NCBI GenBank assembly: GCA_030674455.1
Contig: JAUSGQ010000006.1
Location: forward strand, 15,654 to 79,653
Direction of reading: 5' to 3'
From: a bacterium
Lineage (GTDB): Bacteria > Patescibacteriota > Minisyncoccia > Phycocordibacterales > UBA2100
DNA: 64,000 nt
The position numbers and the translations under genes are program-made. Under the pieces are notes generated by a model, which did not search any database, was not told the DNA's origin, and worked only from the letters and a program-made list of their open reading frames with translations. This document shows positions 4,217 through 48,430 of this stretch, in pieces; the stretch's first letter is position 1; each line of letters begins with the position of its first letter.

Positions 4217-5800
<1,584 letters not shown>

Positions 5801-17744: not shown

Positions 17745-20700
17745 ATGCAGAAGGTACATGGGTTCAGCGCGCGCGTGTTTCTTACCTCGTCCGCGATTTT
17801 GGTCGCGGCGATTTTATTATCAGCTTCCATGGTTAGCAAGGCGGACGCGGCCATAGGTCTCGATGTAACCGCATCACTCACCACTTTTAATCAGACAATC
17901 AAGGCCTCCAGCACGCCAACGGCAGTCATCGGGCTTAATCTTATAAGTGTAGCGAGTCCGGGTGTAGAGACCCTTGCATCCACAAGCATCGCCTTTTTTG
18001 GCGCGGGATTCGCGACCACTACTGACCTCGCGCCGCTCGGAACCGCTACGTCCTCCGGCGTAGCGCTCTATCGCGACGACGCTTCGGCGGGTACGCAGGG
18101 CGCTTTTGACGCATTCGACGACGTCGTTCCTCTTCAGAGCGCGTCGTGGGATGTCGCGGGCGCTACGACGACGTTATCATTCCTTACAAACGAAACAGTT
18201 CCAGTTAACGATACCGGCAACAACGCTGGCAACGACTACTTTATAGTAATACAGACCGCGGGGGGAGCTGTAAACCTTCATGCCTTTACGGCAAATATGT
18301 ATCCCGGCTCAATTCAATGGAACGCAAGTACGCCTACGGCGACTCCGATAGCATTGTCCACAAATACGGTAACGATAGACACAGCAGCGCCGACTCTAGA
18401 CACAAGCATGTCTGGACCAGCGAACGGTTCAACAGGTGTTCCTGTTTCCACCTTCATCCATCTCGGCTTCAGCGAGAACCTCGACCAGACGACACTGAAC
18501 CCGAACAACGTCACGCTTACTAGGGGCGGCAATGCGGTTGGAACGGCGATTCGTCCGTTTCCGAACGGCTTTGATTTGGTTGCATCCAGTCCTCCTACGT
18601 ACACGGCATCTTCGCGATTCGCGAAAGCAGACACGGTCAGCACCGGATTCTTCCAGATAAACGGCAGTAACCAGATATTCCCGCAGGGCGGATATTCGGC
18701 GCCGACGCGAGGAGACATCGTCTACACGCAAACGGATACTTTCCCGCCTGAAGTCGGAGTCATAACAAACGCCACTCTCACATCCGGCACCTTCGCGATA
18801 AACAACAACCCCGCGTTCCGTCCTCTACAGATAACCAAATTTGCTTCTCCAACGGTCGCGGGATACACGGGGGACGGCGCGGTTGTTGGAGTAGGCGATC
18901 TCCTTGTCGCGAATACTTCCGCAAAACCTTCCAACGTGCGTTACAACTGGCACATCGTAACGACAGGCCAGGCCCTTAACAATGCGGGCTTGCGCCTGGA
19001 CGGCGAAGATGCGGCTCCTACATACGCGACGACTACATTCGCGCGCCTTTTGCCCGCCGCGACCTCTACTATTGACGCATCGCAACTGTTCACAGCAACG
19101 ACTACCCTTATGGCCGGCGACCTTGTGTTTGCCAAAGTTGTGAGAGGCGGAGACAACCTGAATACATACGCGTGGCATCTTGTGACCACCGCAGAGACCA
19201 ACGATACAGTCACGGCGGCTCCGCCACAGGGAGCGACAGGTACTACGACCGCGCTTCGCCTAGACGGCGCGGCGGTCGCGCCGACATTCGCTGCGAGTTC
19301 AGTGGTTGCGGTTCTTGGTTTTGCCGCACAGGGGGTTCTTGACGGAGCAGTTGCACAGGATGCCACAGTTTTTAGTTTCGGGGACATAATGTTCGCAAAA
19401 ACAACAGATAATGCGGCCAATAACGGCTCTTATGCGTTCCACCTAGTGTCCAACGGCGCGACTGGCGCCACTTCTACCTCGCTCCGTCTTGACAACTCGG
19501 CGTCGAATCTTACTTCTTCCGCTTCCTATGTGATTACCGCGGGTACGGGTATAAAAGATTCCGCGGGCAACGCATTGGCCGCAACATCAACTATTACATT
19601 CACCACTGGCTCAACTGGCGGAACCAACACGACTCCTCCGGCGGTTCAAAACTCCCAACCGCAGGCGGGCAATCAATCGTTTGCTCCAAACGCTCCAATC
19701 AAGCTGATATTTTCTGTAGCTATGGAAGCGGGAAGCACAAGCGGGGCGAACTCGGTTACGAATACCGCCGTCGTCAAACTTTCAACAAGCGTGAACGGCA
19801 CGCCAACAACGCAGGTGACATCGGGCGTAACGAACAGCTACGACTCAACAACGAACACGCTGACAATCGCGCACACGAGCGCTCTTACAGTGAGTACTGA
19901 TTATGTAGTACAAGTGACAACCGCGGCAAAAAGTTCAACGGGCGCTTCGTTCCCGATGGAATATCGCCTCTACTTCAGGACAGGCACTGCTTCCGACAGC
20001 ACGGCGCCGACTATCCTCGGAGTCTCCCCGACAAATTCTTCGACGGGAGTTTCCATGAGCCCCGTTATTACAGCCGGATTCTCGAAAGACATGAATCCCG
20101 CGACGCTAACTACAACGACCGTAAAACTTGTGGAGACATTAAACAATAGCAATGCAGTTGCAGGAGGCGTTTCGTACAGCCCAAACAGCCGTTCCGTGAA
20201 CTTCGTTCCTTCTACCCCGCTTACAGCCAACACAGGATATTCATTCGTAATCGTTGGTGGTGCATCCGGCGTCACGGACCTCTCGAACAACGCTCTGGCG
20301 AGCCACTCCACTACAACCTTCACAACAACGGCAACCGTCGACGTCATCGCGCCTTCCGTCAACTTTGCCAACGCCGATGACTTCGGAATCGCTATCACGT
20401 TCTCCGAGCCGATGAAATCGGGAGGCGGTCCGAACGCCGCCGACAATGTCGCGAACTATACGCTTGAGAGTCCTACAGGCACCTCGATTTCTCTAGGAGG
20501 GAAAACCATAACGTATGACTCGGGCTCAAAAACCGCGCGCATCACGGGCTTGGCGCTTCAGAATGGCAACGGATACAAAGTTACTGTAGCGTTGCCGGTA
20601 CAAGACCTTGCCAGCAACGCTATTTCGATAGTCGGCACTCCAGCGGGCAACCTTGCCTTCGGTACTGTACAAAATTCCACAGCGACGGGCGGCCAGCTCG

Positions 20701-23700
20701 GGCCTGGCGGCGGAACGATGAACTTCAGCATGCAGGGCATGAACCCGACGCGCGTTTCTCCGGAAAGCCGCTCCGCTGGAGTAACGTCAAATTACAAAGT
20801 TGAATTCTTGGCCACTACAGCAATTCCTATCGGCGGGCAGATTCAGCTTGTCTTCCCGAGCGGATTCACGATTACAAATGCATCAACTACTGCCGCGGCA
20901 ACGTCGTTCTGCAACGCGGACCTGAACGGTCCGATGCCTGGGGTTCCCTCAATCGCCACGGTGACCAACGATAATTCTTCAGGAATCATCACGATAACCA
21001 CCGCCGCTTCTTCAACAGGCGCCTCCGCGTTCGTGTGCTTGGACGTAACGGGAGTTGTCAATTCAGCCGTTCCAAATTCAAGCGGATACACAGTAGACAT
21101 AAAGACCCGCGATACGGGAGACAATAATCGCGCGATACTTGAGACGAAGACATCATCGCCATTCTTCCTCGGGCAAGCGGGTTCCCGCACGCTCATTGCA
21201 AACGTATTCAACGACGGCAACGCTAACGGTGAGAAAGACGCGAATGAGGGCATAGCGGATGTGCGCGTATTCCTCTTCTCTCCGGCATCTGGAGGAAATT
21301 CAACTACTACAACCGCGACCGGCGTAGCGACATTCAACTCTCTTTCCGATGGCGACTATATGCTTGGACTCGACCCCGGGTCGTTGGCTAGCGCTTCTTC
21401 GACGGTTACGTTTAATTCCATGCCTCAGCCATTCATGGTATCCGCTACAAATCTGACGAAGAACTTTATAGTTTCCGGAGGAGGGAGCAGCGTGAACATA
21501 TCTGGAACTGTCACAGGCCCATCCGGCACAGCGGTTGACATCTTTGCTTCCAGCAACAACGGCTTTTCGAGAAAGACCGTAACGCTTTCAGGCGGAGCGG
21601 ACGACTATTCGATTCCCGTGAGTACGAATACAATTTACAACGTAGGAGTCGGCCCGGCGATGCCTGAAGCATTCTTCACTCCAGGAGCCCCTCCGCCTCC
21701 GCCGCCTACATTCACCTTCATGCCGCCTCCTAATATCACGGTAACTGTCGCGACAACGTCAATAACGGGCAAAGATTTCTCGCTTACAACCGCGAGTAAA
21801 ACGATTACCGGAACGGTGCGCGATTCTACTGGAGCCGCAGTTTCAAACGCCGGCGTATTCGCTCGGCCTATGTCGAACTCATCGGGCGCGGAAGTCGGTT
21901 TTGGAACCGGAGGACAAACGAATACTTCCGGCTCGTTCACTCTTAACGTAGTACCCGGAACGTATCTGGTCGGCGTATTCAAAGGCGGAATGCCGAATGT
22001 GCCGGACCAGCAAATTACAGTTCCATCTAGCGGGGCCAACACTCCTGCCTCGCTCGCGTTTTCTCTGGGGGCTGGAACGTCTATAACGATTTCCGGAACG
22101 GTGAAAGACGATGGAGGCAACGCGATTCCTTACGCGGGCGTAAACGCGCGCAAAGTGAACTCGTCATCCGACACGACGTCTATGGGCGGAGGCTCGCAAA
22201 ACTTCGTCGGAGGTCCGACGGATTCCAACGGCGCGTACACGCTCTATGTCGACTCGGGAACTTGGGTAGTTGAGGCGTTTGCCCCCGGATTCGGCAGGCT
22301 CGGCCAGAAAACTCTGTCAGTTACGGCAAGCCTCTCCGGACAGGACTTCTCAGCGCAGACGCTTTCTATCGGAACCATAACCGGCACAACTACCAAAGCA
22401 AGCGTCGAGCAACAAGGCGTAATGGTGCGGGCTGACGGCGCGGCGGGCTCCAACATGGCTGTCTCGGATGCTTCCGGCGTATACACGCTGAAAGTCCCGG
22501 CCGGAACTTATAACCTTACCTGTTTCTTCCCGGGTGTCGGCGAATCCGCGCCATTAACGGGAGTCGTGGCAGTAGTGAACGAGACGTCATACAATAATAA
22601 TTGTACTCTTGCTTCTCCCATAACCATTACTGTCAATCTGACGGACGGTACCAATCCGATTACCGGCGCGTACATAGACGTGCGCGATTCGAACGGCCGC
22701 GGAAATGGAACAAACGTTTCGGCCACCTCTAGCACTCTCGCGACCTACACGGTTACCGTGCCTCCGGGAACATATACGGTGCGTGCGGGACATCCAGCGT
22801 ACGGAACGATAGGAAGCACTGGCAACGTCTCCACAACCCAAACTATTACCTACACTACGACTGCGGGCGCTACGAGGGCAATTACGGGCACCGTTTCTGA
22901 CGGCTCGGCCGGAATCAACGGGGCATGGGTGTCGCTCACCGGAACTCCGACAGGTCAAACTAATACGATAAATACTGGAGCGCAGACAGATTCCACGGGT
23001 GCCTTCACGCTCAATGTTCCTGCAGGGGGCTATACAATCCACGCAAACAAAGGGGGATATATAGCTTCCGGCGCTGACTCAACGGTTACAGTCGCTGGAG
23101 CGGCGGTTTCGGTAGGTACCATAACTCTTACGGCCTCAACGCAAACGATATCAGGCACAGTAACATTGGATAATGTTGGTGTTTCCGGCGCTTATGTAGA
23201 CGCCTCCGCCCCCGGCGGCGGATTTGCGGTGTCGCAAACCGATTCCGCCGGCGCGTACTCGCTTGCTGTGAAGAATGGCACGTGGACAGTGCGCGCTCAC
23301 GCGATGGGATATGAAGGCGGGCCCACTACGGTCACGGTCGCGGGCAACAGCCCGACACAGGGAATTGCACTCACTGCAATTACGGGCTTCGTCTCAAAGC
23401 CCGAACATCAGGAGACAGTAACGCCCACCTCGGGAGGATATCTGACGAACTCCGACATCGGGGACAAGTTCAAAATGAGCATTCCGGCTAACGCCTTGGG
23501 CACGGGTTCAAACGCGGTCACTGTGAAAACCCAGGCGTACACGACTCTTCCTAACCCGTCATCGGGCAGCGTTCTTGCTAAAAATGGACTCTCGTTCTCC
23601 GCGGTTGATTCTTCCGGCCAGCCGATAAAAACTCTGAACAGTCCTATCACGATAGTTATTCCTTATACTGAAGCCGATATACCGACAGGAAAGACTGAAG

Positions 23701-24887
23701 CGGACCTAGTGTTCGGAACATGGAATGGAACCGACTATGAGACCTTGCCGACAACAGTAGACACGGTAAACAACACCTTGACGGTAACCATCTCGCACTT
23801 CTCCAGTTTCGCTCCGTTGGTGCAGGGTAATGTCGCAGTGGCAGCCGCTGCGGCTGCAACTACGGCCACGGTTAGTCCCGGCGGCGGGGGAGTCATGGGA
23901 GGAGGCGGGGCTACGAACATTCCGAAAGCACGCGCTCAAATTATTTATCCTGATGGACGCATCGCCTACGTAGACCAGATAGGAGGGGAATCTGCTCCTT
24001 CCGCGAGCGCAACTGCGGGAGCGAGTTCCGCATCTGCATCTTCGGCAGTCTCGGCCTCGGCCAAGTTCACCGCGCTTTTGAAACAGGGCTCCAAGGGTTC
24101 GGATGTTAAGCGACTCCAGAAACTTCTTGGTGTTGAGGAAACGGGATTCTTCGGCGCGCTTACGCGCGCCGCAGTTGAGCAATTCCAAATAAAGTATGGA
24201 ATTGCAAAGAAAGGACAAGCTGGTTTTGGAACTCTTGGACCCAAGACAAGAGCTAAAATCGCAGAGGCATTTAGTTCGACAGCAGCGGCTAGCTCCCCGC
24301 AGGCAGGCACTGCGGCTCCCGAAATCGGTTCGCTTGCGATACTTGCCGGAGGCCAGTTTGTTCGTTCGCTCAATCTTCGCGCGAAGGGAAGCGACGTGCG
24401 TACTCTTCAACAAATTTTGAACAGCGACCCAGACACGCGCGTCTCATCCGAAGGCGCAGGTTCTCCGGGCGGCGAAACGACTTTCTTTGGCGGCGCAACT
24501 CTGAAAGCCGTGCAGAAATTCCAAGTGAAGCATGATATCGCGAAGCCAGGCAATATCGGATACGGAAATGTCGGGCCGAAAACAAGGGCTAAGCTGAACG
24601 AACTCCTAAATGCATCAAGTTCCGGAGGTGTCTCCCTGCCTACCGGCCAGGCAGGCTCACCTTTAGGGGGAGGTGACTCCTCGGGAACATCTGCCTCCAC
24701 TGCCAACACAGCATCCGCATCTGCCGAAGCTTCAACCGCGGCAGCAGTAACCGCGACAACAACCCCGACGTCGTTAGTCGGGGCTCCGACCGAAAGCGTC
24801 GGAGCTGAAACTGCCGCAACGACCACTGCCGCGACAACAGTAGCGGCTACAGCAACTACCACCGCAACTTCCACAGCGAGCAATTAA
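17745..24887 (+). CDS. giant (2380 aa) secreted surface protein: Ig-like/Big and carboxypeptidase-regulatory-like repeats, C-terminal tandem peptidoglycan-binding domains
   Basis: Signal peptide. Repeated SPxNxxTGV Big-like modules and many VSGTVxD...G beta-sandwich repeats. Two PG_binding_1-like modules near the C-terminus (GSDVKRLQKLLGV...GFGTLGPKTRAKI; GSDVRTLQQIL...GYGNVGPKTRAKL) and a low-complexity Ala/Thr tail. In-frame Element B copy at about 24640-24700. Confidence 0.85.
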   Translation: MQKVHGFSARVFLTSSAILVAAILLSASMVSKADAAIGLDVTASLTTFNQTIKASSTPTAVIGLNLISVASPGVETLASTSIAFFGAGFATTTDLAPLGTATSSGVALYRDDASAGTQGAFDAFDDVVPLQSASWDVAGATTTLSFLTNETVPVNDTGNNAGNDYFIVIQTAGGAVNLHAFTANMYPGSIQWNASTPTATPIALSTNTVTIDTAAPTLDTSMSGPANGSTGVPVSTFIHLGFSENLDQTTLNPNNVTLTRGGNAVGTAIRPFPNGFDLVASSPPTYTASSRFAKADTVSTGFFQINGSNQIFPQGGYSAPTRGDIVYTQTDTFPPEVGVITNATLTSGTFAINNNPAFRPLQITKFASPTVAGYTGDGAVVGVGDLLVANTSAKPSNVRYNWHIVTTGQALNNAGLRLDGEDAAPTYATTTFARLLPAATSTIDASQLFTATTTLMAGDLVFAKVVRGGDNLNTYAWHLVTTAETNDTVTAAPPQGATGTTTALRLDGAAVAPTFAASSVVAVLGFAAQGVLDGAVAQDATVFSFGDIMFAKTTDNAANNGSYAFHLVSNGATGATSTSLRLDNSASNLTSSASYVITAGTGIKDSAGNALAATSTITFTTGSTGGTNTTPPAVQNSQPQAGNQSFAPNAPIKLIFSVAMEAGSTSGANSVTNTAVVKLSTSVNGTPTTQVTSGVTNSYDSTTNTLTIAHTSALTVSTDYVVQVTTAAKSSTGASFPMEYRLYFRTGTASDSTAPTILGVSPTNSSTGVSMSPVITAGFSKDMNPATLTTTTVKLVETLNNSNAVAGGVSYSPNSRSVNFVPSTPLTANTGYSFVIVGGASGVTDLSNNALASHSTTTFTTTATVDVIAPSVNFANADDFGIAITFSEPMKSGGGPNAADNVANYTLESPTGTSISLGGKTITYDSGSKTARITGLALQNGNGYKVTVALPVQDLASNAISIVGTPAGNLAFGTVQNSTATGGQLGPGGGTMNFSMQGMNPTRVSPESRSAGVTSNYKVEFLATTAIPIGGQIQLVFPSGFTITNASTTAAATSFCNADLNGPMPGVPSIATVTNDNSSGIITITTAASSTGASAFVCLDVTGVVNSAVPNSSGYTVDIKTRDTGDNNRAILETKTSSPFFLGQAGSRTLIANVFNDGNANGEKDANEGIADVRVFLFSPASGGNSTTTTATGVATFNSLSDGDYMLGLDPGSLASASSTVTFNSMPQPFMVSATNLTKNFIVSGGGSSVNISGTVTGPSGTAVDIFASSNNGFSRKTVTLSGGADDYSIPVSTNTIYNVGVGPAMPEAFFTPGAPPPPPPTFTFMPPPNITVTVATTSITGKDFSLTTASKTITGTVRDSTGAAVSNAGVFARPMSNSSGAEVGFGTGGQTNTSGSFTLNVVPGTYLVGVFKGGMPNVPDQQITVPSSGANTPASLAFSLGAGTSITISGTVKDDGGNAIPYAGVNARKVNSSSDTTSMGGGSQNFVGGPTDSNGAYTLYVDSGTWVVEAFAPGFGRLGQKTLSVTASLSGQDFSAQTLSIGTITGTTTKASVEQQGVMVRADGAAGSNMAVSDASGVYTLKVPAGTYNLTCFFPGVGESAPLTGVVAVVNETSYNNNCTLASPITITVNLTDGTNPITGAYIDVRDSNGRGNGTNVSATSSTLATYTVTVPPGTYTVRAGHPAYGTIGSTGNVSTTQTITYTTTAGATRAITGTVSDGSAGINGAWVSLTGTPTGQTNTINTGAQTDSTGAFTLNVPAGGYTIHANKGGYIASGADSTVTVAGAAVSVGTITLTASTQTISGTVTLDNVGVSGAYVDASAPGGGFAVSQTDSAGAYSLAVKNGTWTVRAHAMGYEGGPTTVTVAGNSPTQGIALTAITGFVSKPEHQETVTPTSGGYLTNSDIGDKFKMSIPANALGTGSNAVTVKTQAYTTLPNPSSGSVLAKNGLSFSAVDSSGQPIKTLNSPITIVIPYTEADIPTGKTEADLVFGTWNGTDYETLPTTVDTVNNTLTVTISHFSSFAPLVQGNVAVAAAAAATTATVSPGGGGVMGGGGATNIPKARAQIIYPDGRIAYVDQIGGESAPSASATAGASSASASSAVSASAKFTALLKQGSKGSDVKRLQKLLGVEETGFFGALTRAAVEQFQIKYGIAKKGQAGFGTLGPKTRAKIAEAFSSTAAASSPQAGTAAPEIGSLAILAGGQFVRSLNLRAKGSDVRTLQQILNSDPDTRVSSEGAGSPGGETTFFGGATLKAVQKFQVKHDIAKPGNIGYGNVGPKTRAKLNELLNASSSGGVSLPTGQAGSPLGGGDSSGTSASTANTASASAEASTAAAVTATTTPTSLVGAPTESVGAETAATTTAATTVAATATTTATSTASN

Positions 24888-24898
24888 AGAGGCGGGAA

Positions 24899-24938
24899 AA
24901 GGTGAGACCTTGGGAGTGATTCTTTAAGGTCTCACCTT
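24899..24938. terminator. hairpin AAGGTGAGACCTT / AAGGTCTCACCTT with loop GGGAGTGATTCTTT
   Basis: Loop is near-identical to the loop of the 10780-10827 hairpin. Confidence 0.5.
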
Positions 24939-24955
24939 GAAAGGACAAGGTGTTT

Positions 24956-25060
24956 CCTCAGGCATAGCCGGAGGTGACTCCTTGTCCGCATCCCGCACAA
25001 AGAAATTCCCGAGGTGACTCCTTGGCATTTGCAAGGTGTCTCCTCGAGAATTCTTGAAAT
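24956..25060. repeat. cluster of Element B (GAGGTGACTCC / GGAGTCACCTC) palindromic repeats
   Basis: CCGGAGGTGACTCC and CCCGAGGTGACTCCTTGGCATTTGCAAGGTGTCTCCTCGAGAATTC. Related copies at 31281-31345, 34761-34830, 48381-48430 and 7-53. Confidence 0.6.
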
Positions 25061-25074
25061 GGTAGAATAACGGG

Positions 25075-25692
25075 ATGGATATCTTTTCACACGGGCTTTG
25101 GGCAGGTGCGGCAGCGAAAGCCGCAAACAAAATAAGTTCCCGAGGTGACTCCCTGCCTGCCTCTGGCAGGCTCACCGAAGGGGGAGGCGACTCCTCACGT
25201 AGGGAGGTGTCGCCTCCATGCAGCTCAAAACTAAACGTCTGGCACGCGGCCGCGTGGGGAGTGTTTCCGGATTTGTTTGCGTTCACTCCGGCATTCATCG
25301 GCCTCTTTTGGTTACTCGCCACAGGCCAGATGAGTTTATCAGAGTGGCCGGGTCGGCATGGCGGCGAGCCCTCACCGGGCGACTCGCTTCCCGTATTTCA
25401 ACTCGCTGGCCAGCTCTACAATTTCAGCCACAGCATTTTTGTGTTTGCGATCGTGTTTTGCATTGTGTGGTTCATGCGAAAAAAGCCAGTGCTTGAAATG
25501 GGCGGCTGGCTTCTCCACATCATCATGGATATCCCGACGCATTCATACGCGTTCTATCCGACGCCCGTCTTCTGGCCGCTCTTTGGATGGAAATTCAACG
25601 GCATTCAGTGGGCGCAGCCGTGGTTTTTGATTCTCGATTACGGCTTATTGATTTTGGTGTATTGGTTGTTGAGGGAGAAGAAAATCAAATAA
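25075..25692 (+). CDS. membrane protein, possibly DUF457/YdjM-like metal-dependent hydrolase; N-terminal region carries in-frame repeat elements
   Basis: N-terminal MDIFSHGLWAGAAA, hydrophobic helices, HIIMDIPTHSYAF. Residues 20-60 are encoded by Element A/B copies at 25141-25215. Confidence 0.4.
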   Translation: MDIFSHGLWAGAAAKAANKISSRGDSLPASGRLTEGGGDSSRREVSPPCSSKLNVWHAAAWGVFPDLFAFTPAFIGLFWLLATGQMSLSEWPGRHGGEPSPGDSLPVFQLAGQLYNFSHSIFVFAIVFCIVWFMRKKPVLEMGGWLLHIIMDIPTHSYAFYPTPVFWPLFGWKFNGIQWAQPWFLILDYGLLILVYWLLREKKIK

Positions 25693-26136: not shown

Positions 26137-26165
26137 TTGACAAGTGGGTGCAAATAATATATAAT
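26137..26165 (+). promoter_or_regulatory. perfect consensus sigma70 promoter TTGACA-N17-TATAAT driving the sortase gene
   Basis: Exact consensus hexamers. The ATG lies 10 nt after the -10, so the transcript is near-leaderless. Confidence 0.6.
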
Positions 26166-26175
26166 TTCGACCGCT

Positions 26176-26934
26176 ATGGAAATCGAGAATACGCCCATTT
26201 TGAGTCATAAAAAGCCTGCCTGCGTTGCGAACGCGACAGGCAGGCCGCCCACGGCCGTCTTTTTGGCTACCGCCTTTGTCATATTCGTTCTTACTCTTTC
26301 GGCGGCGGATTCTATTGGATTCGTTCCAAATTATATTGATGGTTCGACCGAGGAAAGCGCGGCAGAACCTGCGGACTTCCTGCCACTCGCATCTCTCCCA
26401 CAGCTCGGCGGTCTGCCGTCCATTGAATCGATTACCGCGGAAATTGCCGAACCGGTCGCACTTCCTAATCGTATCGTAATTCCTGCAATAAAAATGGACC
26501 TTCCAATCCAAAACCCATCGACAAAAGACATCAATAAGCTTACCGAAGTTCTTAAAGCTGGCCCCGCTCGATATGTGGACTCCGCGCAACTGGGTGAGAA
26601 AGGGAACATGCTTGTATTCGGACACAGCTCACAGTTGCCGGTTGTTAAAAATCAGATGTACAAGGCGTTCAATAATATTTCAAAACTAAAACAGGGCGAC
26701 ACTATTACGGTATATGGCGGGCCGTCTACAGGTGCCGCCACAACCAGCGGTGGACATGCGTATCTCTATAGCGTGGTCAGCGTGCGGGAAGGGGATGCGA
26801 ATGAAGATGTAATCGACCTCTCGAAAAATAAGGGTACGAGGATAACGCTTGTGACCTGCAACACGCTTGGCGAAAAAAGCGCGCGATGGATAGTGGAAGC
26901 CGAATTCGTTGGCGTTCTTCCTTCGTCAGATTAG
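26176..26934 (+). CDS. sortase-family transpeptidase (membrane-anchored)
   Basis: N-terminal TM anchor. Sortase beta-barrel with catalytic ITLVTCNTL (TLxTC) motif and an upstream conserved His region (LVFGHSSQ). Confidence 0.8.
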   Translation: MEIENTPILSHKKPACVANATGRPPTAVFLATAFVIFVLTLSAADSIGFVPNYIDGSTEESAAEPADFLPLASLPQLGGLPSIESITAEIAEPVALPNRIVIPAIKMDLPIQNPSTKDINKLTEVLKAGPARYVDSAQLGEKGNMLVFGHSSQLPVVKNQMYKAFNNISKLKQGDTITVYGGPSTGAATTSGGHAYLYSVVSVREGDANEDVIDLSKNKGTRITLVTCNTLGEKSARWIVEAEFVGVLPSSD

Positions 26935-26982
26935 ATTGAGATGTCATCTCAATGGGTTTCGTATAAAAAGCTTGACCAACGA

Positions 26983-27012
26983 CATTCCAACATTCTCAAG
27001 AATGTTGGAATG
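26983..27012. repeat. third copy of the 30-nt perfect palindrome CATTCCAACATTCTCAAGAATGTTGGAATG
   Basis: Lies between the convergent sortase and toxin genes. Confidence 0.5.
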
Positions 27013-27023
27013 TTATCCATACG

Positions 27024-27302
27024 TTACCGATAGATGTCGTGCAAGCCAATATCCAAAAAGAGAACGCGATTGTTTCCAAGAAATGAGAATTTGATTCTAT
27101 ATTTTCTGTCCACCGAGAATCCCCATGCGTTTTTATCTTTACCGTGCAGTTTGTGGGTTTCCAGACTGGGATGGAATGGATTTATGCGAAATATCGCCTC
27201 CTTTTCCTTTGCAAGCTCTTTCAGTCTTTTCGGTAATTTGCGGTAGTGTTTATCAAATCTCGGAGATGACTCGATATGCATATATCTCGAGAAGTATTTC
27301 AA
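27024..27302 (-). CDS. type II toxin, RelE/ParE (YafQ-like) family
   Basis: 92 aa, FDKHYRKLPKRLKE...THKLHG...WGFSVDRKYRIKF, typical of RelE-fold mRNA interferases. Confidence 0.7.
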   Translation of the reverse strand: MKYFSRYMHIESSPRFDKHYRKLPKRLKELAKEKEAIFRINPFHPSLETHKLHGKDKNAWGFSVDRKYRIKFSFLGNNRVLFLDIGLHDIYR

Positions 27303-27541
27303 TCTAGATCGGCCAGAGAACGTAGTGTGCGTGTTCTTCCATACCGATAATCCCGCAATCCTTCTTCTACGAGCTTATCCAAACGTTTCGCCGCTTTACC
27401 GGTCAAGTAATATTCGGGAATAGAGGCCTTAACAAGCCGCTCATACTCCTTTATTGGGAGTACAACAACGCCCCTTTGTTTCTGAACAGACTTCTGGGAA
27501 AGTGTAATCATTTTCATAAAGGACAGTATACCATAATTCAT
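27299..27541 (-). CDS. antitoxin, Phd/YefM-like
   Basis: 80-aa ORF overlapping the toxin start by 4 nt, with GVVVLPIKEYERLV. The start may lie at an internal Met. Confidence 0.5.
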   Translation of the reverse strand: MNYGILSFMKMITLSQKSVQKQRGVVVLPIKEYERLVKASIPEYYLTGKAAKRLDKLVEEGLRDYRYGRTRTLRSLADLD

Positions 27542-27841
27542 CTTTTGGGCCGCTCGGCGCGTTCATCGGCGCGGAGCGGGCGAGGTGTCACTGTGTCGGG
27601 ATTTCGTAAATCCCCATACCTGATGCGTCGAATTCTCGACCTACACTAAGGTTACGCTATCGCGCAAGCTTAGTGTATCCCCAAATTAGTGGCTATAGCT
27701 TCAAATTTGGGGATATGGGTTTCTGCGCATTTATTCGTATGAATTGAAATGTTGCGTTCGGACGTTTTGGGTAGTCTAATGATTTCAAGCCGCCGAAAGG
27801 ATGGGCTCACGATTTAGGTCATTCACTCGAGGAGAGTCAAA

Positions 27842-28069
27842 ATGGGCAAAAGATTGCTCAAAGTTTTAGCCGCGCTGTTCGGCGCGGTAATGTTGGCCGG
27901 ATGTGTTTCATTGCGTGGTCCTATAGATGACTACGCAGAAGTTCCAGAGGCGGAATGGAATGCTCGATGCGGCGATTTGCGTCCCTATGAATCCGAATGT
28001 GTGATTCGGGTTCGTACATTGCCCGATGGTCGGGTCGAAGAGGTTTATCTTTGGGTGCGCAGGTATTGA
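27842..28069 (+). CDS. small lipoprotein (lipobox LAGC)
   Basis: MGKRLLKVLAALFGAVMLAGC signal/lipobox. Paralogous N-terminus to the gene at 28445. Confidence 0.45.
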   Translation: MGKRLLKVLAALFGAVMLAGCVSLRGPIDDYAEVPEAEWNARCGDLRPYESECVIRVRTLPDGRVEEVYLWVRRY

Positions 28070-28071
28070 GC

Positions 28072-28110
28072 TGGGGCAGCAGGTGGTGACCACCTGCTGC
28101 CCTTGTGTTT
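28072..28110 (+). terminator. rho-independent terminator
   Basis: 13-bp stem GGGCAGCAGGTGG/CCACCTGCTGCCC followed by a T-tract. Confidence 0.6.
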
Positions 28111-28195
28111 TTCGCCCGAATTCATGAAATTCTCATCTTGAGAGAATAGAATCACTAAGGTCAATATTTGGCTTGATTGAGCGCCATATTAGGAC

Positions 28196-28223
28196 TTGAC
28201 AAGCACAAAGGAGGTGATATAAT
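28196..28223 (+). promoter_or_regulatory. consensus sigma70 promoter TTGACA-N16-TATAAT with a ~220-nt leader
   Basis: Exact hexamers. The downstream leader contains TAGAAGC x3 repeats before the ATG at 28445. Confidence 0.55.
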
Positions 28224-28444
28224 ATACATCGACTTAAAAAGCCAGCATCTTGCTTACGTTTCTGAATTTCCTAGAAGCTAGTGACTAGAAGCTAGAAGCT
28301 GTGCCACCAATTGTGTTCGTTCGAAAGCATTGGATAAACTCTAATGCTCCCGACCCGACGCAATGCTTGTTTAGATTGTTGAGGGTGCTCATTTAAATCG
28401 TCTCCGGTTCATTGGAGACTTCATCAACCAAGAGAGAGGTCACT

Positions 28445-28957
28445 ATGGGCAAATTCGCCCTTACGCTTTGCCTCGCGCTGTTCGGCGCGGGAGTAGTACC
28501 GGCAGTCGCACAAAACACTTTTGACCCGTCCTGGACAGCGTCGTTCAGACATGGTTTCTGGGATCAAATGGGACGGACTGGCGTACCGATGCTATTCGGG
28601 GGAGTGCGGTATCTTACGATGCCATACTCCGGTCCGTTTCCCACGAACTACGCGGCTCCAGCGGGATGTCAAATCGGGTATGCGTGCGTTCGACAAGACT
28701 ACGTTCAGCAGCACTTGGTGTATCTCGGCAGGATATATGTCCCCGTCGGGAAACCGGGCAATACCCAGCCCACTCCTCCAGCACTTCCTGTAAAAACGCA
28801 GGTTAGCGGCTGGCAGGAATACGGCGGGGCGACGAACCCAGCTTGTGCAACGGAGGTCAAGGGGAAACCCGAGGACTCCGCCTGTTATTGGGCGACCAAT
28901 GCGCAAAAACAACGCGTCTGGCGCTGTCCCAATAGCGAATGCAATCCCAAGCAATGA
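28445..28957 (+). CDS. secreted Cys-rich protein
   Basis: MGKFALTLCLALFGAGVVPAVAQN signal peptide. Start chosen at the ATG with AGAGAGAGG upstream; the track ORF begins at a TTG at 28412. Confidence 0.5.
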   Translation: MGKFALTLCLALFGAGVVPAVAQNTFDPSWTASFRHGFWDQMGRTGVPMLFGGVRYLTMPYSGPFPTNYAAPAGCQIGYACVRQDYVQQHLVYLGRIYVPVGKPGNTQPTPPALPVKTQVSGWQEYGGATNPACATEVKGKPEDSACYWATNAQKQRVWRCPNSECNPKQ

Positions 28958-29155
28958 CCTCTCCGGTCGAACGGCCTCCTCGTAGGTCGTGTGTGGGAAG
29001 TGTAGCGCTCCGCTCGCTTCCCACACGAAGCTGTTTTTATCCAAAGGAATTTGAGAAATCGAACTTCTTTGGATCCAAGCATCAAAAACTGGGATCCTTT
29101 CATCCTTTTTGGATGACTGTGGTCTTTTTCAATTCAATCCTGAAAGGAAGTCGCC

Positions 29156-29869
29156 ATGTATACGCGAGTGTGTGCGGTAGTTTTTTTTGCAGTATTCGTT
29201 GCAGGTTGCGGCGAAAAAGGTCCGACACTGGACCAGCGCGTGGCTGCGTTGGAAAAGGATCAAGTTGTGGTTGCCGACCACAACAAGCTAGTCAACGCGC
29301 ATAACAGCCTTAATAAAAAAGTGGAGGCGCTTCAGGGCACGGTTACTGCTCTGGAGAAAAAAGAACAAGAGCGCGCAGAGGCAGAGAAGGAAAAAGAAGA
29401 AACTGCTGAAAAAGCGGCTGAAGAAAGAAAAGCCGCGGCGAAAAAGGCGGCGAAGCCAAAAACTCCGAGCGCCGCAACCATCGGCAAATGGCAAGGGCGC
29501 ACTGACCTTGCCAAAAACCCAATCGCTCGCGGGAACGAGCGCCGCGGGCTGCCGAGCGGGTTCGTGAAAGCGTGCGACGTGAAAGGTAAGCCCGGGGTAA
29601 AGGGCTATCCGATCAATTTTGATCGGGAAAAGAATACCTTCACGGAGTGCGCCGAAATTGTAAAGTCCACTTGCCGTGACCCCCTGATCGGCAAAGTGGA
29701 AACCTTCGCCGGACTCTGCAAGATGAGAGTCGGCGAAGAGTTGAAGGAGGTTTCGCTTGGTGACCTACTTCCGCAACGTTGGGTGAGGTGCCAGACCCCC
29801 GAGGTGGAGATGGAGGGCACCAAGCTCAACATGGACGCACATTTCAAGTGCATCCGGCCGATGCCGTAG
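29156..29869 (+). CDS. lipoprotein with Lys/Glu-rich coiled-coil segment
   Basis: Signal/lipobox VFVAGCG. Central KEQERAEAEKEKEETAEKAAEERKAAAKKAAK low-complexity region. Confidence 0.5.
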   Translation: MYTRVCAVVFFAVFVAGCGEKGPTLDQRVAALEKDQVVVADHNKLVNAHNSLNKKVEALQGTVTALEKKEQERAEAEKEKEETAEKAAEERKAAAKKAAKPKTPSAATIGKWQGRTDLAKNPIARGNERRGLPSGFVKACDVKGKPGVKGYPINFDREKNTFTECAEIVKSTCRDPLIGKVETFAGLCKMRVGEELKEVSLGDLLPQRWVRCQTPEVEMEGTKLNMDAHFKCIRPMP

Positions 29870-30018
29870 GGGCGGCGCGGCATTAGGGAATGGGGGCGGA
29901 CGACACTTTGCGTAAAGCCGCCCCCAACCCATTTTTTTCTTGGAGTTCGAAACATTAATACGTTTTTTAATGTTTCGAACTCTCGGAAAAAGCGAGAGTT
30001 TCGGCCTTGTCGAAGGCC

Positions 30019-30047
30019 TTGACAGATTAAAGTATTAAGAGTATAAT
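30019..30047 (+). promoter_or_regulatory. perfect consensus sigma70 promoter TTGACA-N17-TATAAT; leaderless transcript
   Basis: The -10 ends 8 nt before the ATG at 30056. Confidence 0.6.
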
Positions 30048-30055
30048 TAACTTAT

Positions 30056-31543
30056 ATGAAAACTATAAACACGTTTGTCGCGATAGCTTTATTTGCGTTT
30101 GGTGCGCCTTTTTTTGCGTTTGCCGATGATAACGTCGGTGACGGCAATGTAATTCCGCCTCCGGGTTATACGGATTATATTCCTACTCCCGGCTATACAG
30201 ACTACATTCCGACCCCGGGATACACGGATTATGTTCCATCGTACGGCTCTCAAGCCTACGATGTCTACGACGTTTACGGAACTTCTCCGACTTACGACTA
30301 CTACTCCACGTCTCCGAATTACTACGCTACCACTCCTAATTATTACTCTAGTCCAAGTTACTACAGTTCCACACCGACTTATTACCCGACGACTCCGGTA
30401 TATTCGTCTCCGGGTGTAGCTGCAGCTCCTATTTACTCTTACTCGCCTACGAATACGACAATAACAGAGACCACTTCAACTTGGGCTCCTTCGGAAGTTT
30501 ACACTTACGCGCCGACCTCAACGTGGGCGCCGACAGAAATATATTCTCCGAGCGAAATTTACACTTACTCGCCTACGACAGTTTCCAATTACTCTCCAAC
30601 AAGTATCTACGCTCCGAACGACAGCCACGATTACGCCCCGACTACGGTTACCACAGACAGCCACAACTACACCGGTCCGGTTACCATCTCGGTAGTCTCG
30701 CAAGCCCCAGCGCAAAGCCCTGTGCAATACGTTTCGGGAGGCGGAACGTACTTCAACAACTCTCCTTCGTACAACAATTCTCCCTCGTACTACAACACGC
30801 CGAGCTACTTCCCGCCGGCGCCTGCGCCTTCTTGCAGAATCGTTGCCAGCGGTGGATACGGCTCCGGCTACGGTAACAATGCAGTTGTACTCTCTTGGAC
30901 TTCTTCGAATGCCAACAGCGGATACATCTCTCCGCTCGTAGGCACTGTCGCTCCTTCCGGCTCGACGACTGTTTACCCGAACGCCAATACTCTCTACACG
31001 CTCACGGTTTCGGGCAATGGCGGAACTTCTTCCTGCCAAACGTATGCCGGTTACAGCAACTATGTTGCTCCTGCCGCTCCGGTCTACACAGCTCCGGTTG
31101 CGCAAGCGGCCGCAGTAGCTCCGTATGTCGCCCTCACGCAGATTCCTTACACGGGATTTGACTTCGGCACCTTCGGCAACGCCATGTACTGGCTCGTGCT
31201 TGCGGGATTCGCTGTCGCCGCTTCCTACCTTGTACTCTACTTCCGCGGTGGCGCATTCGCGCTCGTCGGCTCGATGTTGCGAGGAAAGAATTCTCGAGGA
31301 GACACCTCCCCCTTGGGGGTGAGGAGTCACCTCGGAAATGCCGGAAAGACCGCTGAATTCGCGACGTCACGAGTTTCCGAGGAGACACCTTCCCTGCCCG
31401 CCGAAGCTTCAGCGCAGGCAGGCAAAAGCGAAGGAGTCACCTCGAACCTCGGAACTTCTGCCCGTGGCACGAATGATTCAATGATTTCCGTCGGTTCAGT
31501 AGAGGGCGGAATGGGTCCGCGCATCGTAGTACTCCGCGCTTAA
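30056..31543 (+). CDS. secreted Ser/Thr/Tyr/Pro-rich repeat surface protein with C-terminal IPYTG-TM-basic tail (candidate sortase substrate)
   Basis: Signal peptide. PTPGYTDYIPTPGYTDYIPTPGYTDYVP repeats. A Cys-bracketed LSWTSSNANSG domain like those in the 2619-4082 protein. IPYTG at 31142-31156 followed by a hydrophobic helix and RGG...R. The cytoplasmic tail is extended by Element A/B insertions. Confidence 0.7.
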   Translation: MKTINTFVAIALFAFGAPFFAFADDNVGDGNVIPPPGYTDYIPTPGYTDYIPTPGYTDYVPSYGSQAYDVYDVYGTSPTYDYYSTSPNYYATTPNYYSSPSYYSSTPTYYPTTPVYSSPGVAAAPIYSYSPTNTTITETTSTWAPSEVYTYAPTSTWAPTEIYSPSEIYTYSPTTVSNYSPTSIYAPNDSHDYAPTTVTTDSHNYTGPVTISVVSQAPAQSPVQYVSGGGTYFNNSPSYNNSPSYYNTPSYFPPAPAPSCRIVASGGYGSGYGNNAVVLSWTSSNANSGYISPLVGTVAPSGSTTVYPNANTLYTLTVSGNGGTSSCQTYAGYSNYVAPAAPVYTAPVAQAAAVAPYVALTQIPYTGFDFGTFGNAMYWLVLAGFAVAASYLVLYFRGGAFALVGSMLRGKNSRGDTSPLGVRSHLGNAGKTAEFATSRVSEETPSLPAEASAQAGKSEGVTSNLGTSARGTNDSMISVGSVEGGMGPRIVVLRA

Positions 31544-31574: not shown

Positions 31575-31660
31575 ATAGACACCTGTAGACGGCCTATCGT
31601 TTGTGATAGGCACCTGTAGACGGCCTATCGTTCATGATAGACACCTGTAGACGGTCCGTG
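31575..31660. repeat. three tandem 31-bp copies of Element C (CACCTGTAGACGG core)
   Basis: ATAGACACCTGTAGACGGCCTATCG(TTTGTG) repeated three times. Confidence 0.65.
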
Positions 31661-31783
31661 AGCTCCCCCTCCTTCGCCTCCTCCTTCGCATAAAGCTACG
31701 GAAGGACAAAGAAGGCTTCGGAGGGCAAAGAAAGCGAAAGCAACAAAAACCGCCTCAATGGCGGTTTTTGTTTTGTGGCTATA

Positions 31784-34213: not shown

Positions 34214-37200
34214 TCAAAGCGCCTTAGCCTTTTCCACCACGAAGCTGGACTCTCCGTTGCGCAATGAGAATTTGCCTTTCAGCATGACGCATGTACCGGC
34301 GATTATGCTCGGTTCGTTTTCTTTGAGCGTGCGAGGGAAAAGGACTATTTCAACGCTTCCCGAATAATCAGAGAGGCGGCCGAATGCCATGCGCTCGCCG
34401 TTCTTGGTCAGAATGTACTGGAGATTCTCGAGCAGTCCTGCGATGACAGTTTCTGTTCCTTTGGGGAACGTTTCTTTCGCGACGCCGATGGCCATCTTTT
34501 GTTTCGCCAGTTTTTCTTTATGCGCGTCCAAAGGATGGCCTGATACGTACAATCCGAGAAGTTCCTTCTCCCAGGTTAGCCGCTGTGTCATTGTGGCGGG
34601 CGGTGCAGGTTTAAGGGAGAGCTTTGCCGGAAAGAACGCACCTCCGCCGGAGGCGGATCCGCCTCCGGCGGAGAATAGGGAACTCTGATTAGTCGGAATG
34701 TCGGTATGTTCTTTGTGAAAGCTCAAAAGTAGGTCGATGTTCGCGAGAAGCTGTCCGCGGGTGTCCGCATCAGAGGTGACTCCTCCTTTGGAGGTGTCTC
34801 CTCGGATGCTGGAGGAGTCACCTCGGGCTAGTTCGTCCAATGCTCCGCATTTAATAAGAGACTCGAGAGATTTTTTATTTAAGTTTTTGTCCGGAACTCT
34901 GCTTAAGAAATCTCCAACGTCGGTAAACTTCTTTCCTTTCTCCATTGCTATCATTATGGAGTCGGCGACACCCGTGCCGAAATTCTTTATCGAGTATAAG
35001 CCAAATCTAATGCTCTTGTCGTCCACTACCGTAAAATTTCCCTGGCTCTCGTTGACGGACGGCGGAAGAATCTTCAATCCCATGCGCGCGCATTCCGCGA
35101 CGACGATAGCCACTTTATCCACATCGCCTGCGTCCGCGGTAAGGACAGAAGCCATGTAGTCGACAGGGAAATTAGCCTTCATGTAAGCCGTTTTATAGGC
35201 TAAGTTACCGTAAGATGCCGCGTGCGCTTTGTTGAAACCATACGCGGCAAAAGTCTCGATTTGTTCCCAGAGTTTCTGGACGAGTGCCTCTTTCATTCCA
35301 TGTTTCAAGCAACCGCGAGTAAATTTCTCTTTTTGCGCGCGCATCTCAACAGGGATTTTCTTTCCCATTGCTTTACGGAACTTATCGGCTTCAAGCCACG
35401 TATAACCTGCGATTTTAGTTGCAATTTCCAAGACATCGTCCTGATATGTGATAACTCCATACGAATTTTTTAGAATCGTTTCCATGCGCGGGTCCAAATA
35501 TTCCACCTGCTCCGGATGCTTCTTGCGCTCGATGTAATTGGGGATGAATGCCATGGGGCCCGGCCGATAGAGCGCGACCATCGCGTTGATGTCGTGAATG
35601 CTTGTGGGCTCGAGATTGATGAGGTGGCTCGTCATGCCTGCGCTCGCGAGCTGGAACACGCCGAGTGTTTCTCCGCGCCCGAGCATCTCGAACGTTTTTT
35701 TGTCGTCGAGCGGTAGGCGGTCAAGATCGATTTTTATTTGCAAACGCTTTTCCACGCGCACGATTGAATCCGCAAGAACGGAAAGGTTCGTGAGTCCCAA
35801 GAAGTCGAATTTCAGAAGCCCCGCGTCTTCCACCGCATACATATCGTATTGCGTTATTTTCTTTCCTCCTTTCGGGTCGAGTTGCACGGGGACGTAATCG
35901 GTGACCGGCCCCGGCGCAATGACGACGCCCGCGGCGTGAACGCCCATGTGCCGCGCGTTTCCCTCGACTTTTTTGGACAGGTTGATAATTTCCCGCGCAT
36001 CCGGGTCGCGCTTGTACATTTCTTTAAGCTCCGGAACTTCCTCGAGCGCGCCGTCTATGGTGACGGGGAATCCCTGCTTGCCGAACGGTATCAGCTTCGC
36101 GATGGTGTCGCCCGTGCCGTATGCGTGGCCGAGCGCGCGGGAGACATCGCGCACCGCCGCGCGCGCCATCATGGTGCCGAACGTCCCTATTTGCGCAACA
36201 TGGTTTTCTCCGTACTTTTCGCGCACGTAATCAATGAGCTCGTCGCGCCGGTTGTCCGCGAGGTCCATATCGATATCGGGCGGGGATGGGCGCTCGGGGT
36301 TTAGGAATCGTTCAAAGGGAAGCTGATACTCTATCGGGTTCACCGTGGTAATGCCCGAAAGATACGAAACAAGCGAGCCGGCAGCCGACCCCCTCGTGTT
36401 GGTAAGAATTCCTTTTTCTCGCGCGTGCCGCAAAAGGTCTGCGACCACGAGAAAGTACGGAGAATAGCCTTTCTCCTCAATGACCGAAAGTTCGTACTCC
36501 ACGCGTTTCTTGTTTTTTTCCGTTTCTGACATTCCACGTTCCTTGAATCCCGCGTATGCCATTTCGCGTAGAACATCGTTGTGGGATGTACCTTTGGGAA
36601 CCGGAAATTCAGGGAATACCCACGTGCCGAGCTTCAGTTCGAGGTTGCAGGCCTCGGCGATATTAACGGAATTCGCAAGCGCTTCGGGATATTTTGCAAA
36701 AATCTCCATCGCTTTCGCGCGCGTCATGAATGAAAAATCGGGCGCATTTTCTGCGAAGTCGCGGTTCAAGACGCTCGCCGAACGGATTTTATCCACGAGC
36801 TCGCGCGCAAGCGCGTCCTCCTTTTCCATGTAGTAGACCTCCTGCGAGGCGACTAGGCCGATGCCCGATTCCCGCGCAAGCGAAGCGATACTTTTCATCA
36901 ATTTCTCGTGCCCTTCGATTTCCGGATGATGCGTGATCTCTGCGTAACATCCGCCGGCGGGCGGAGAGCCGAAAACGGAAACATGCCAGCGCGCGGAATC
37001 CTTTGCCCGCTCTATCGCTTTATCTTTGAGCGCGCGGGAATGCTCGCCGTCTTGCGCCGGCAAAATCGCTATCAAACCCTCGCGATGCATTTCAATAAGC
37101 TCGCGGTCAACGCGGGGACGCACAAAGAATCCTTCCAGATGCGATTTTGTGACAAGTTGTATGAGATTGCGATATCCCTCTTTATTCTTTGCCAATAGAA

Positions 37201-48380: not shown

Positions 48381-48430
48381 TTTCCGAGGAGACACCTCCC
48401 CACACATGGGTGAGGAGTCACCTCGGAAAT
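48381..48430. repeat. Element B copy (TTTCCGAGGAGACACCTCC...GGGTGAGGAGTCACCTCGGAAATGCC), intergenic
   Basis: 24 nt are identical to 31325-31348. Imperfect ~20-bp hairpin with TTTCCGAGG/CCTCGGAAA ends. Confidence 0.65.

Follow-up and report, generated by a model that had tools for sequence, protein, structure and literature searches.

The stretch of DNA described here, hereafter the window, comprises 64,000 nucleotides of contig JAUSGQ010000006.1 from a bacterium of the Patescibacteriota, and it carries on one strand the genes of a membrane-anchored sortase and of a secreted protein that holds the pentapeptide IPYTG in front of a C-terminal membrane helix. Comparison of both proteins and of their genomic surroundings with those of relatives indicates that the two genes probably encode a dedicated sortase-substrate pair of Parcubacteria, that is, of Kaiserbacteria-like bacteria of the Candidate Phyla Radiation (CPR). 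The reading is carried by the near-invariance of the signal among relatives and by the proximity of the two genes in loci collected from either side. CPR bacteria, or Patescibacteria, are thought to live attached to host cells, and little is known of the way in which they assemble and decorate their envelope. The coordinates of all features of the pair are collected in Table 1.

With regard to the enzyme, the sequence matches the Pfam sortase family PF04203 (MEROPS C60) over residues 100-244 with 65.9 bits (cut-off 26.6; E = 3.7e-18), and the signature TLVTC occupies residues 224-228. The catalytic residues H150, C228 and R237 do not vary among 16 aligned, diverse orthologues of 52-75% identity; among 100 unique orthologues, [LIV]VTC.T recurs in 86 and F[AG]H[ST]S in 99. 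A word-indexed search returned 555 homologues, the best of which are labelled Parcubacteria, Paceibacterota or Patescibacteria, and one protein from a metagenome-assembled genome (MAG) at NCBI, P0024, is 100% identical to the window sortase. The AlphaFold2 model has a mean predicted local distance difference test score (pLDDT) of 68 and shows an N-terminal helix at residues 26-46, followed by a catalytic domain (residues 91-250) in which most 10-residue blocks average 74-94 and five blocks 54-68. Searched with Foldseek, this model retrieves many sortase structures, with classes A, C and E alike at E ~1e-9; the three classes rank equal, and an assignment of the class from structure failed. By sequence, the nearest solved structures are SrtA of Bacillus anthracis (2kw8), with a profile E of 4.4e-11, and a chain that its depositors named 'putative secreted protein' (5go6). 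In other words, Pfam, the triad, the fold and the N-terminal helix all agree with the first-pass annotation, which had read this gene as a membrane-anchored sortase with a TLxTC motif.

None of the sortase classes with another defined substrate claims the enzyme, the NCBIfam class models scoring it at 18-41 bits against cut-offs of 160-166 (class E 41 versus 160, class C 25.8 versus 160, class F 20.9 versus 166, class D 18.1 versus 165); the generic sortase model TIGR01076, at 27.7 bits, also stays under its cut-off of 39.35. Since every class score lies far under its cut-off, this true sortase stands outside the curated classes A-F, and it belongs to a Parcubacteria- or CPR-specific clade. 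Two motifs outside the catalytic domain are characteristic of it. Specifically, a juxtamembrane motif A[DE]S.G.VP.Y.D is found in 79 of the 100 unique orthologues, and the motif LPxLG, whose residues L74, P75, L77 and G78 are invariant in the 16-sequence alignment, is found in 87 of them (as LPQLG or LPELG in 76). LPxLG sits in an otherwise variable linker, within a region (residues 48-90) modelled with pLDDT below 50. As it resembles a sorting pentapeptide minus its threonine, one may speculate that it could serve as a pseudo-substrate or lid.

The second protein had been described in the first-pass annotation as a secreted Ser/Thr/Tyr-rich product with an IPYTG pentapeptide, a hydrophobic span and an RGG stretch, and all these elements are present as placed. 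Its C-terminal region reads LTQ-IPYTG-FDFG..GN.MYW, followed by a membrane helix, RGG and 96 more residues; the hydrophobic span is 21 residues long and starts 8 residues past IPYTG. A six-frame scan of the 64-kb window, covering open reading frames (ORFs) of at least 80 residues, identified this as the sole [ILVMAF]P.[TSA]G pentapeptide followed by a hydrophobic span. The protein matches no Pfam or NCBIfam family, and the PEPxxWA-CTERM model gives noise on it (8.1 versus 35 bits). In the AlphaFold2 model a confident immunoglobulin (Ig)-like sandwich is followed by an unstructured IPYTG stretch, a helix, a disordered linker and two low-confidence terminal strands. The Ig-like domain has the pattern LSW.S.NA.S..., ...Y.LTV.G.NG...C, to which Pfam PKD-like families match below threshold, and a fold search with the substrate model returned generic Ig-like similarity only, with none at E <= 0.001. 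Across the family, a simple sequence test finds a signal-peptide-like start in 127 of 150 unique motif-bearing ORFs, and the ectodomains are composed of 11.6% Tyr, 12.3% Ser, 11.7% Thr and merely 0.35% Lys, 57 of 120 having no lysine at all, the window protein among them. The ectodomain, acidic and poor in lysine, is likely to be glycosylated or adhesive.

Evidence that the pentapeptide is a signal in its own right comes from relatives that were recognised by its flanks alone, that is, by [VIL][SAT]L.. upstream and by [FLIVM][DEG].G and then a hydrophobic run downstream. All 124 unique signals defined in this way read [IVL]PYTG (117 IPYTG, 6 VPYTG and 1 LPYTG), so that the motif is kept in orthologues, as the proposal of a sorting signal had demanded. 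Conservation per column was taken from 210 unique windows chosen by.PYTG and a hydrophobic run: around the pentapeptide, L at -3 is kept in 95%, Q at -1 in 86%, D at +2 in 81% and G at +4 in 93%. In these signal windows the start of the helix carries a conserved Y-W pair and its interior a tyrosine, and 56% of signals have a basic residue right after the helix (Arg in 35%, Lys in 21%). Homologues of the last 160 residues of the substrate all have [ST]Q-IPYTG-[FA][DS][FL]G and a helix, mostly with a long tail.

An open search gave the same picture. In 80 genome loci gathered around sortase orthologues, mostly from MAGs of Ca. Kaiserbacteria and Paceibacterota, the pattern [ILVMFA]P.TG with a membrane span was found as IPYTG 65 times and as LPYTG once; non-PYTG matches to the pattern in loci L001-L082 number nine, each seen once and none a C-terminal sorting signal. 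When 1.84 billion representative proteins were searched exhaustively with a profile, 9,028 matched at E <= 0.001. These totals are not counts of signals, because most of the matches are due to the very widespread Ig-like domain, which is repeated in up to 47 stretches of a single 4314-residue protein. Among the top 147 matches, 67 end in a signal-like xP.TG with a membrane span, and 65 of these are xPYTG (IPYTG 43, VPYTG 16, LPYTG 3, TPYTG 2, MPYTG 1), the non-PYTG endings being IPSTG, VPRTG and VPHTG, one each. A 52-residue profile of the signal yielded 143 candidates and 1 match in a word-indexed protein search, a metagenome scan for the signal gave 334 confirmed stretches, and a profile of the Ig-like domain plus signal recovered 895 representative proteins at E <= 1e-30. 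In Pfam and NCBIfam, neither the signal nor the tails nor the Ig-like domain is represented by a model, and a full-text literature search found no CPR-related paper naming a PYTG-type signal.

The linkage of the two genes was followed in reciprocal sets of loci, one seeded on the sortase and the other, from metagenomes, found solely through the pattern L[TS]QIPYTG[FL]. A sortase lies upstream on the same strand in 19 of the 19 signal-seeded loci that extend at least 9.9 kb upstream and downstream in none of the 21 that extend at least 8 kb downstream; three of the signal-seeded loci (L098, L099, L105) agree exactly in layout and score and may be one sequence. Conversely, an IPYTG protein follows downstream on the same strand in 32 of the 36 sortase-seeded genome loci with the full 10 kb on that side. 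Both sets thus place the motif near the sortase, all 163 [IL]PYTG motifs in the loci being on the sortase strand; in the signal-seeded loci the median distance from the sortase end to the motif is 3.7 kb (4.2 kb in the window). Variations on this layout include two IPYTG proteins after the sortase (L002), a second, short-tailed IPYTG gene that ends immediately upstream of the sortase in one subclade, and two or three PYTG paralogues at several loci, always with a single sortase per locus. The order of the neighbourhood is conserved as well: PheS/T, GyrB, sortase and IPYTG protein are followed by ThrRS and DnaE on the other strand. The pair is kept in 9 of 10 loci without GyrB upstream, the window included, and in 7 of 10 without ThrRS downstream; sortase and IPYTG gene are the tightest unit of the neighbourhood.

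A second version of the system exists in a sister clade. VPYTG proteins have multiple Ig-like repeats, the signal VPYTG-F[DE]AGP..., a different juxtamembrane and transmembrane sequence, and a cytoplasmic tail that forms a conserved domain of 160-215 residues ending in YP.EDGW..[IL]N..R (loci L164, L166 and L167-L170; proteins P0146, P0157, P0195, P0207, P0219, P0221, P0239 and P0243). Their genes fill the same slot before ThrRS as the IPYTG genes, and on four distinct contigs that reach far enough upstream (L164, L167/L168, L169, L170) a sortase is encoded 0.2-4 kb before them, the closest spacing being 178 nt (L169). These sortases score 127-152 bits on the family model, compared with 287-357 for complete orthologues from IPYTG-type metagenome loci, and they are themselves a sister clade, in which Y..DF[LI]PE replaces ADSxGFVP and LPxLG is missing. 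Sortase type and signal type therefore seem to change together, as judged from two clades only.

The points that weigh against a dedicated pair are best considered together. Inherited gene order explains part of the linkage, because the block sits in a conserved housekeeping neighbourhood; 3 of 38 well-covered sortase loci have no PYTG protein within 10 kb, and at the VPYTG locus L166 (genome GCA_002773395.1) the 10 kb upstream lack a sortase. On the protein side, the LPXTG-anchor model TIGR01167 gives the substrate 9.0 bits, under its cut-off of 15.9 (E = 2.3), and the protein lacks the short basic tail that ends LPXTG anchors, as 99 residues follow its helix. The length of the tail is a property of the family: in orthologues the motif is followed by a median of 111 residues (interquartile range 104-118) and in the window protein by 128, short tails being found in 40 of 222 unique signals, a minority of paralogues. 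Moreover, 119 of the 222 close with a terminal module, T.DSM....[SK].G..PRIVI.R, in which P is conserved in 99%, R in 84%, I in 89%, V in 84%, I in 81% and the penultimate R in 100%, a feature absent from the first-pass annotation. Because the tail of canonical sorting signals is short and basic, a long tail with a conserved end indicates that this protein may in addition function uncleaved, as a bitopic membrane protein.

In its full form, this alternative would have the IPYTG protein as an uncleaved bitopic anchor or signalling module, while the sortase, its neighbour by inherited order, would act on other proteins elsewhere in the genome. The long tail with its module, the different conserved cytoplasmic domain of the VPYTG clade, the housekeeping synteny, the sortase-less L166 and the score under the TIGR01167 cut-off are all what it would lead one to see. 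We regard it as unlikely, considering that P, T and G, which are the residues of a sortase pentapeptide, are invariant and stand at the right distance from the helix, that the window offers no other substrate candidate and loci L001-L082 only the nine stray non-PYTG matches, that the pair stays where the flanks differ, with spacings down to those 178 nt, and that the type of sortase shifts with the type of signal.

Under the preferred reading of a dedicated sortase-substrate pair, the following sequence of events may be proposed, in which we infer cleavage, scissile bond, acceptor and tail role. The substrate would be exported via its Sec signal peptide and would stay anchored in the membrane through the C-terminal helix, Arg397 and the tail lying in the cytoplasm and the unstructured L-T-Q-I-P-Y-T-G about 8 residues outside the membrane. 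The sortase (His150/Cys228/Arg237) would recognise xPYTG and cut between Thr366 and Gly367, the conserved juxtamembrane and transmembrane segments of both partners probably aiding recognition. The Tyr/Ser/Thr-rich, Ig-domain ectodomain would then be moved to an amine acceptor, most likely a peptidoglycan precursor, to give a covalently wall-anchored surface protein, possibly an adhesin. A leftover of 129 residues, G-FDFG...helix...linker...PRIVVLRA, would stay in the membrane, and its conserved end points to an added role, either in retention or presentation of the precursor or in a function after cleavage.

A cell wall as the destination is suggested by the PG_binding_1 match in a 2380-residue neighbour and by a D-Ala-D-Ala ligase in a related locus, and the same two observations speak against a variant of the mechanism in which the sortase cuts between T and G but the acceptor is a lipid, some other polymer of the envelope or, with regulated shedding as the outcome, water. 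To our knowledge, the acyl-enzyme of every characterised sortase is resolved by an amine on a wall precursor or a pilin, which is a further argument for an amine acceptor. In streptococci, cleaved sorting-signal peptides have been described as signals; if the acceptor were not peptidoglycan, the main product could by analogy be the released ectodomain or the retained C-terminal fragment acting as a signal. Such a variant, which we hold to be improbable, would fit the conservation of the post-cleavage fragment on both sides of the membrane and an acidic, lysine-poor ectodomain that is likely glycosylated or adhesive. It is also compatible with how poorly the CPR cell envelope is understood (PMC5220378).

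A further elaboration, possible although rather doubtful, is that xPYTG is only the first part of a bipartite, CPR-specific device, in which cleavage would part a wall-anchored ectodomain from a conserved membrane-plus-cytoplasm fragment with a function of its own, and LPxLG would act as a pseudo-substrate lid. The fragment would end in PRIVI.R in the Kaiserbacteria type or in the YP.EDGW domain of about 200 residues in the sister clade; recognition would proceed via matched transmembrane and juxtamembrane segments, and the fragment could either inform the cytoplasm that the surface protein has been exported or guide the precursor to the sortase.

The comparison with known systems bears on how new the signal is. 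Among the known class C signals are IPQTG, VPDTG and YPRTG of the pneumococcal pilins (PMC5640630), and a gene map of the beta antigen of group B Streptococcus marks LPYTG as a motif (PMC4457541). Since IPxTG and LPYTG are already known, the IPYTG pentapeptide alone is not exotic and lies within known sortase specificity. Of the earlier suggestion that the pairing may define the sorting motif of this lineage, the core is supported by the comparative evidence, while the label 'non-canonical' was an overstatement. As for the CPR, Méheust et al. 2019 (PMC6744442) reported a sortase in more than half of the genomes, and another paper (PMC5220378) touches briefly on 'sortase motifs' of CPR surface proteins; within the reach of the literature search, none names a cognate signal.

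The likeness to class C pilin systems, such as RrgA/B/C of Streptococcus pneumoniae, extends to an Ile or Val at position 1, side-by-side genes and Ig-like domains, and one could imagine that the sortase polymerises IPYTG proteins into a pilus-like fibre in class C style, the more so as IPxTG is typical of pilins handled by class C enzymes and several loci have two or three PYTG paralogues. The window system differs, however, in that it has no pilin-motif lysine, no identified DPW-type lid and a single sortase, and the enzyme scores far under the class C model. Because the ectodomains are nearly free of lysine (0.35%, with none in the 57 cases given above), the nucleophile of a pilin motif is missing, and a pilus is so improbable that this hypothesis was rejected.

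Sortases of classes A, D and E, with substrates LPXTG, LPNTA and LAXTG, resemble the window enzyme in fold, His-Cys-Arg triad, TLxTC and N-terminal anchor (examples being B. anthracis SrtA 2kw8, 5go5 and 5go6, labelled by their depositors sortase and putative secreted protein, and Thermobifida fusca SrtE 9iok), and their substrates resemble the window protein in signal peptide, TG-ending pentapeptide, hydrophobic span and basic residue. In contrast to them, the window signal is extended and near-invariant, L[ST]Q-[IV]PYTG-[FL]D.G, with Tyr fixed at X; the tail has about 100 residues and a terminal module; a locus has one to three substrates; and the sortase has its own juxtamembrane motif and the LPxLG linker motif. 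Dedicated systems such as SrtB, with NPQTN in IsdC, are alike in having a specialised sortase with a private motif beside few substrates, but clade and motif are different, and the genes stand in a CPR housekeeping neighbourhood and not in an iron-uptake or similar accessory operon. Finally, the pairs PEP-CTERM/exosortase, PGF-CTERM/archaeosortase, GlyGly-CTERM/rhombosortase and MYXO-CTERM/myxosortase share the logic of motif, helix and basic residues and were likewise discovered through co-occurrence; here, in contrast, the enzyme is a classical cysteine-transpeptidase sortase and a conserved terminal module is added as a fourth element. What is new is the combination of the fixed Tyr with its extended context, a long tail whose end is conserved, the few substrates, the private sortase clade with conserved motifs of its own near the membrane, and the host lineage.

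Table 1. Features of the sortase gene, the IPYTG protein gene and their promoters in the window
Feature	Position	Strand	Basis or remark
Perfect sigma-70-type match TTGACA-17-TATAAT, sortase	26137..26165	+	ATG 10 nt past the -10 hexamer; near-leaderless mRNA
Sortase, 252 aa, type II membrane protein	26176..26934	+	Pfam, NCBIfam, AlphaFold2 and Foldseek
Sortase membrane anchor (aa 28-44) and conserved juxtamembrane motif DSIGFVPNYIDG (aa 45-56)	26257..26343	+	Invariant alignment columns
LPQLG (LPxLG), conserved, in the linker between anchor and catalytic domain, aa 74-78	26395..26409	+	Alignment
Sortase catalytic domain, aa 96-252	26461..26931	+	Pfam, alignment, AlphaFold2, Foldseek
Catalytic residues His150; Cys228 in TLVTC; Arg237	26623-26625; 26857-26859; 26884-26886	+	
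Repeat element B (CCGTCTACAGGTG...) inserted in frame, giving GPSTGAATTSGGHA, aa 182-195	26719..26760	+	Repeat family, alignment gap, pLDDT
Perfect sigma-70-type match TTGACA-17-TATAAT, IPYTG protein	30019..30047	+	ATG 8 nt past the -10 hexamer; leaderless mRNA
Predicted sortase substrate, 495 aa, secreted, Tyr/Ser/Thr/Pro-rich, one Ig-like domain, bipartite C-terminus	30056..31543	+	
Signal peptide, aa 1-23, ...AFA/DD	30056..30124	+	Read from sequence
Low-complexity Tyr/Ser/Thr/Pro-rich ectodomain, zero lysine	30125..30832	+	Composition
Cys-bounded Ig-like beta-sandwich, aa 260-327	30833..31036	+	AlphaFold2 pLDDT above 90
Extended sorting motif V-A-L-T-Q-IPYTG-FDFGTFGN	31127..31180	+	Conservation; unstructured in model
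IPYTG pentapeptide, aa 363-367	31142-31156	+	Predicted scissile bond between Thr366 and Gly367
Transmembrane helix AMYWLVLAGFAVAASYLVLYF, aa 376-396, then Arg397	31181..31243	+	Model helix, block-mean pLDDT 67-87
Variable cytoplasmic linker, largely repeat elements here	31244..31465	+	
Conserved C-terminal module GTNDSMISVGSVEGGMGPRIVVLRA	31466..31540	+	Family consensus T.DSM....[SK].G..PRIVI.R

Both genes had been credited with perfect, near-leaderless sigma70 promoters, and the start codons indeed follow the -10 hexamers by the 10 and 8 nt listed in Table 1. A third perfect match, at 28196-28223, precedes a 181-residue secreted ORF, whose leader is about 190 nt long. No further perfect match to TTGACA-N16-18-TATAAT exists in the window, and all three fall within this 4-kb block; by our own arithmetic, about 0.02 would be expected by chance in the whole window. 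Taken as a pattern match only, at least 10 of 12 positions are matched within 60 nt upstream of the sortase start in 46 of 83 orthologous regions; before the substrate, a match occurs in 11 of 116 orthologous regions and is not generally conserved at that position.

Three families of short, dispersed, partly palindromic repeats occur in the window, A (GGAGWCACCT), B (CCGTCTACAGGTG) and C (GCCCGCCGAAGC), with copies at 26719-26760, 31298-31445, 31575-31667 and 24626-25155 and further copies at 5333, 34774-34814, 45366, 48388-48414, 62211 and 63493. Some are in frame within coding regions, as a 14-residue insertion in the catalytic domain of the sortase, as several copies in the substrate linker, in the 3' end of the gene for the 2380-residue protein and in the first part of the ORF at 25075-25692; three tandem 31-nt units of element B follow the substrate stop codon. 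In the sortase model the insertion falls between strands 176-181 and 193-207, with low pLDDT at residues 185-190, and the stretch is an alignment gap in 13 of the 16 sequences, most orthologues being without it. In the substrate, the linker between helix and terminal module does not align among orthologues and is predicted to be disordered; in the window it holds element A four times and element C once within 31298-31445, and the close relatives L003 and L004 have similar element-derived peptides in the same linker. The earlier statement that insertions of these elements lengthen the tail holds as far as their presence is concerned; the tail is long anyway, as the orthologue median shows. On this comparison, the long tail is ancestral, and the insertions only fill a variable, tolerant linker that separates two conserved elements.

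Between the sortase and the substrate, a cassette of two genes with a 4-nt overlap occupies 27024-27541 on the minus strand. It had been called a RelE/Phd toxin-antitoxin pair, of which the two-gene arrangement stands and the family assignment is weak: the 92-residue product is HigB/RelE-like with 22 bits, below the cut-off of 27, and its 80-residue partner has no family match. The cassette has no counterpart among the conserved gene clusters of the other loci and so looks like an insertion into the block. Two small secreted genes (27842 and 28412), which the first-pass annotation took for paralogues, share no more than about 15 residues of signal peptide; as components of the system they were rejected, not being conserved between sortase and substrate elsewhere. 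The next gene after the sortase, at about +0.7 kb from the sortase start (L009, L016, L019-L022, L033-L048), encodes in 53 of 115 loci a secreted protein that is Tyr-rich or has hexapeptide-like repeats (e.g. VDIAHA/VSIGYA); it carries no PYTG signal and is not present in the window.

Just upstream of the sortase, at 17745-24887, lies the gene of the giant 2380-residue secreted protein, which has Big_5 and CarboxypepD_reg repeats and no sorting signal; a similar ORF of 2287 residues is found in L004. One PG_binding_1 match in it is significant, and a second similar C-terminal stretch is possible by eye, which suggests that non-covalent wall binding may operate alongside the sortase route. Elsewhere in the window, the GatB ORF at 59207-61528 (773 residues) has a PD-(D/E)XK nuclease domain (PF13366, residues 329-437, E = 2.2e-31) inserted between its catalytic and C-terminal domains, and a duplication of about 150 nt with 85-97% identity (41941-42087 and 52209-52355) spans the starts of the ORFs at 42082-44358 (SMC_N) and 52305-53117, without an Rfam match. 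Rfam identifies no known RNA in the window.

Taken together, these results tie a widespread clade of Parcubacteria sortases to a searchable signal, L[ST]Q-[IV]PYTG-[FL]D.G plus a helix, and to a defined family of Tyr-rich, Ig-domain surface proteins. This provides an annotation rule for hundreds of 'hypothetical' CPR surface proteins and a candidate set of host-attachment proteins, and the peptides LTQIPYTGFDFG and Abz-VALTQIPYTGFDFG-Dnp carry the signal for a direct enzymatic test. The conserved cytoplasmic end is unusual for sortase substrates and may reveal a new layer of control.

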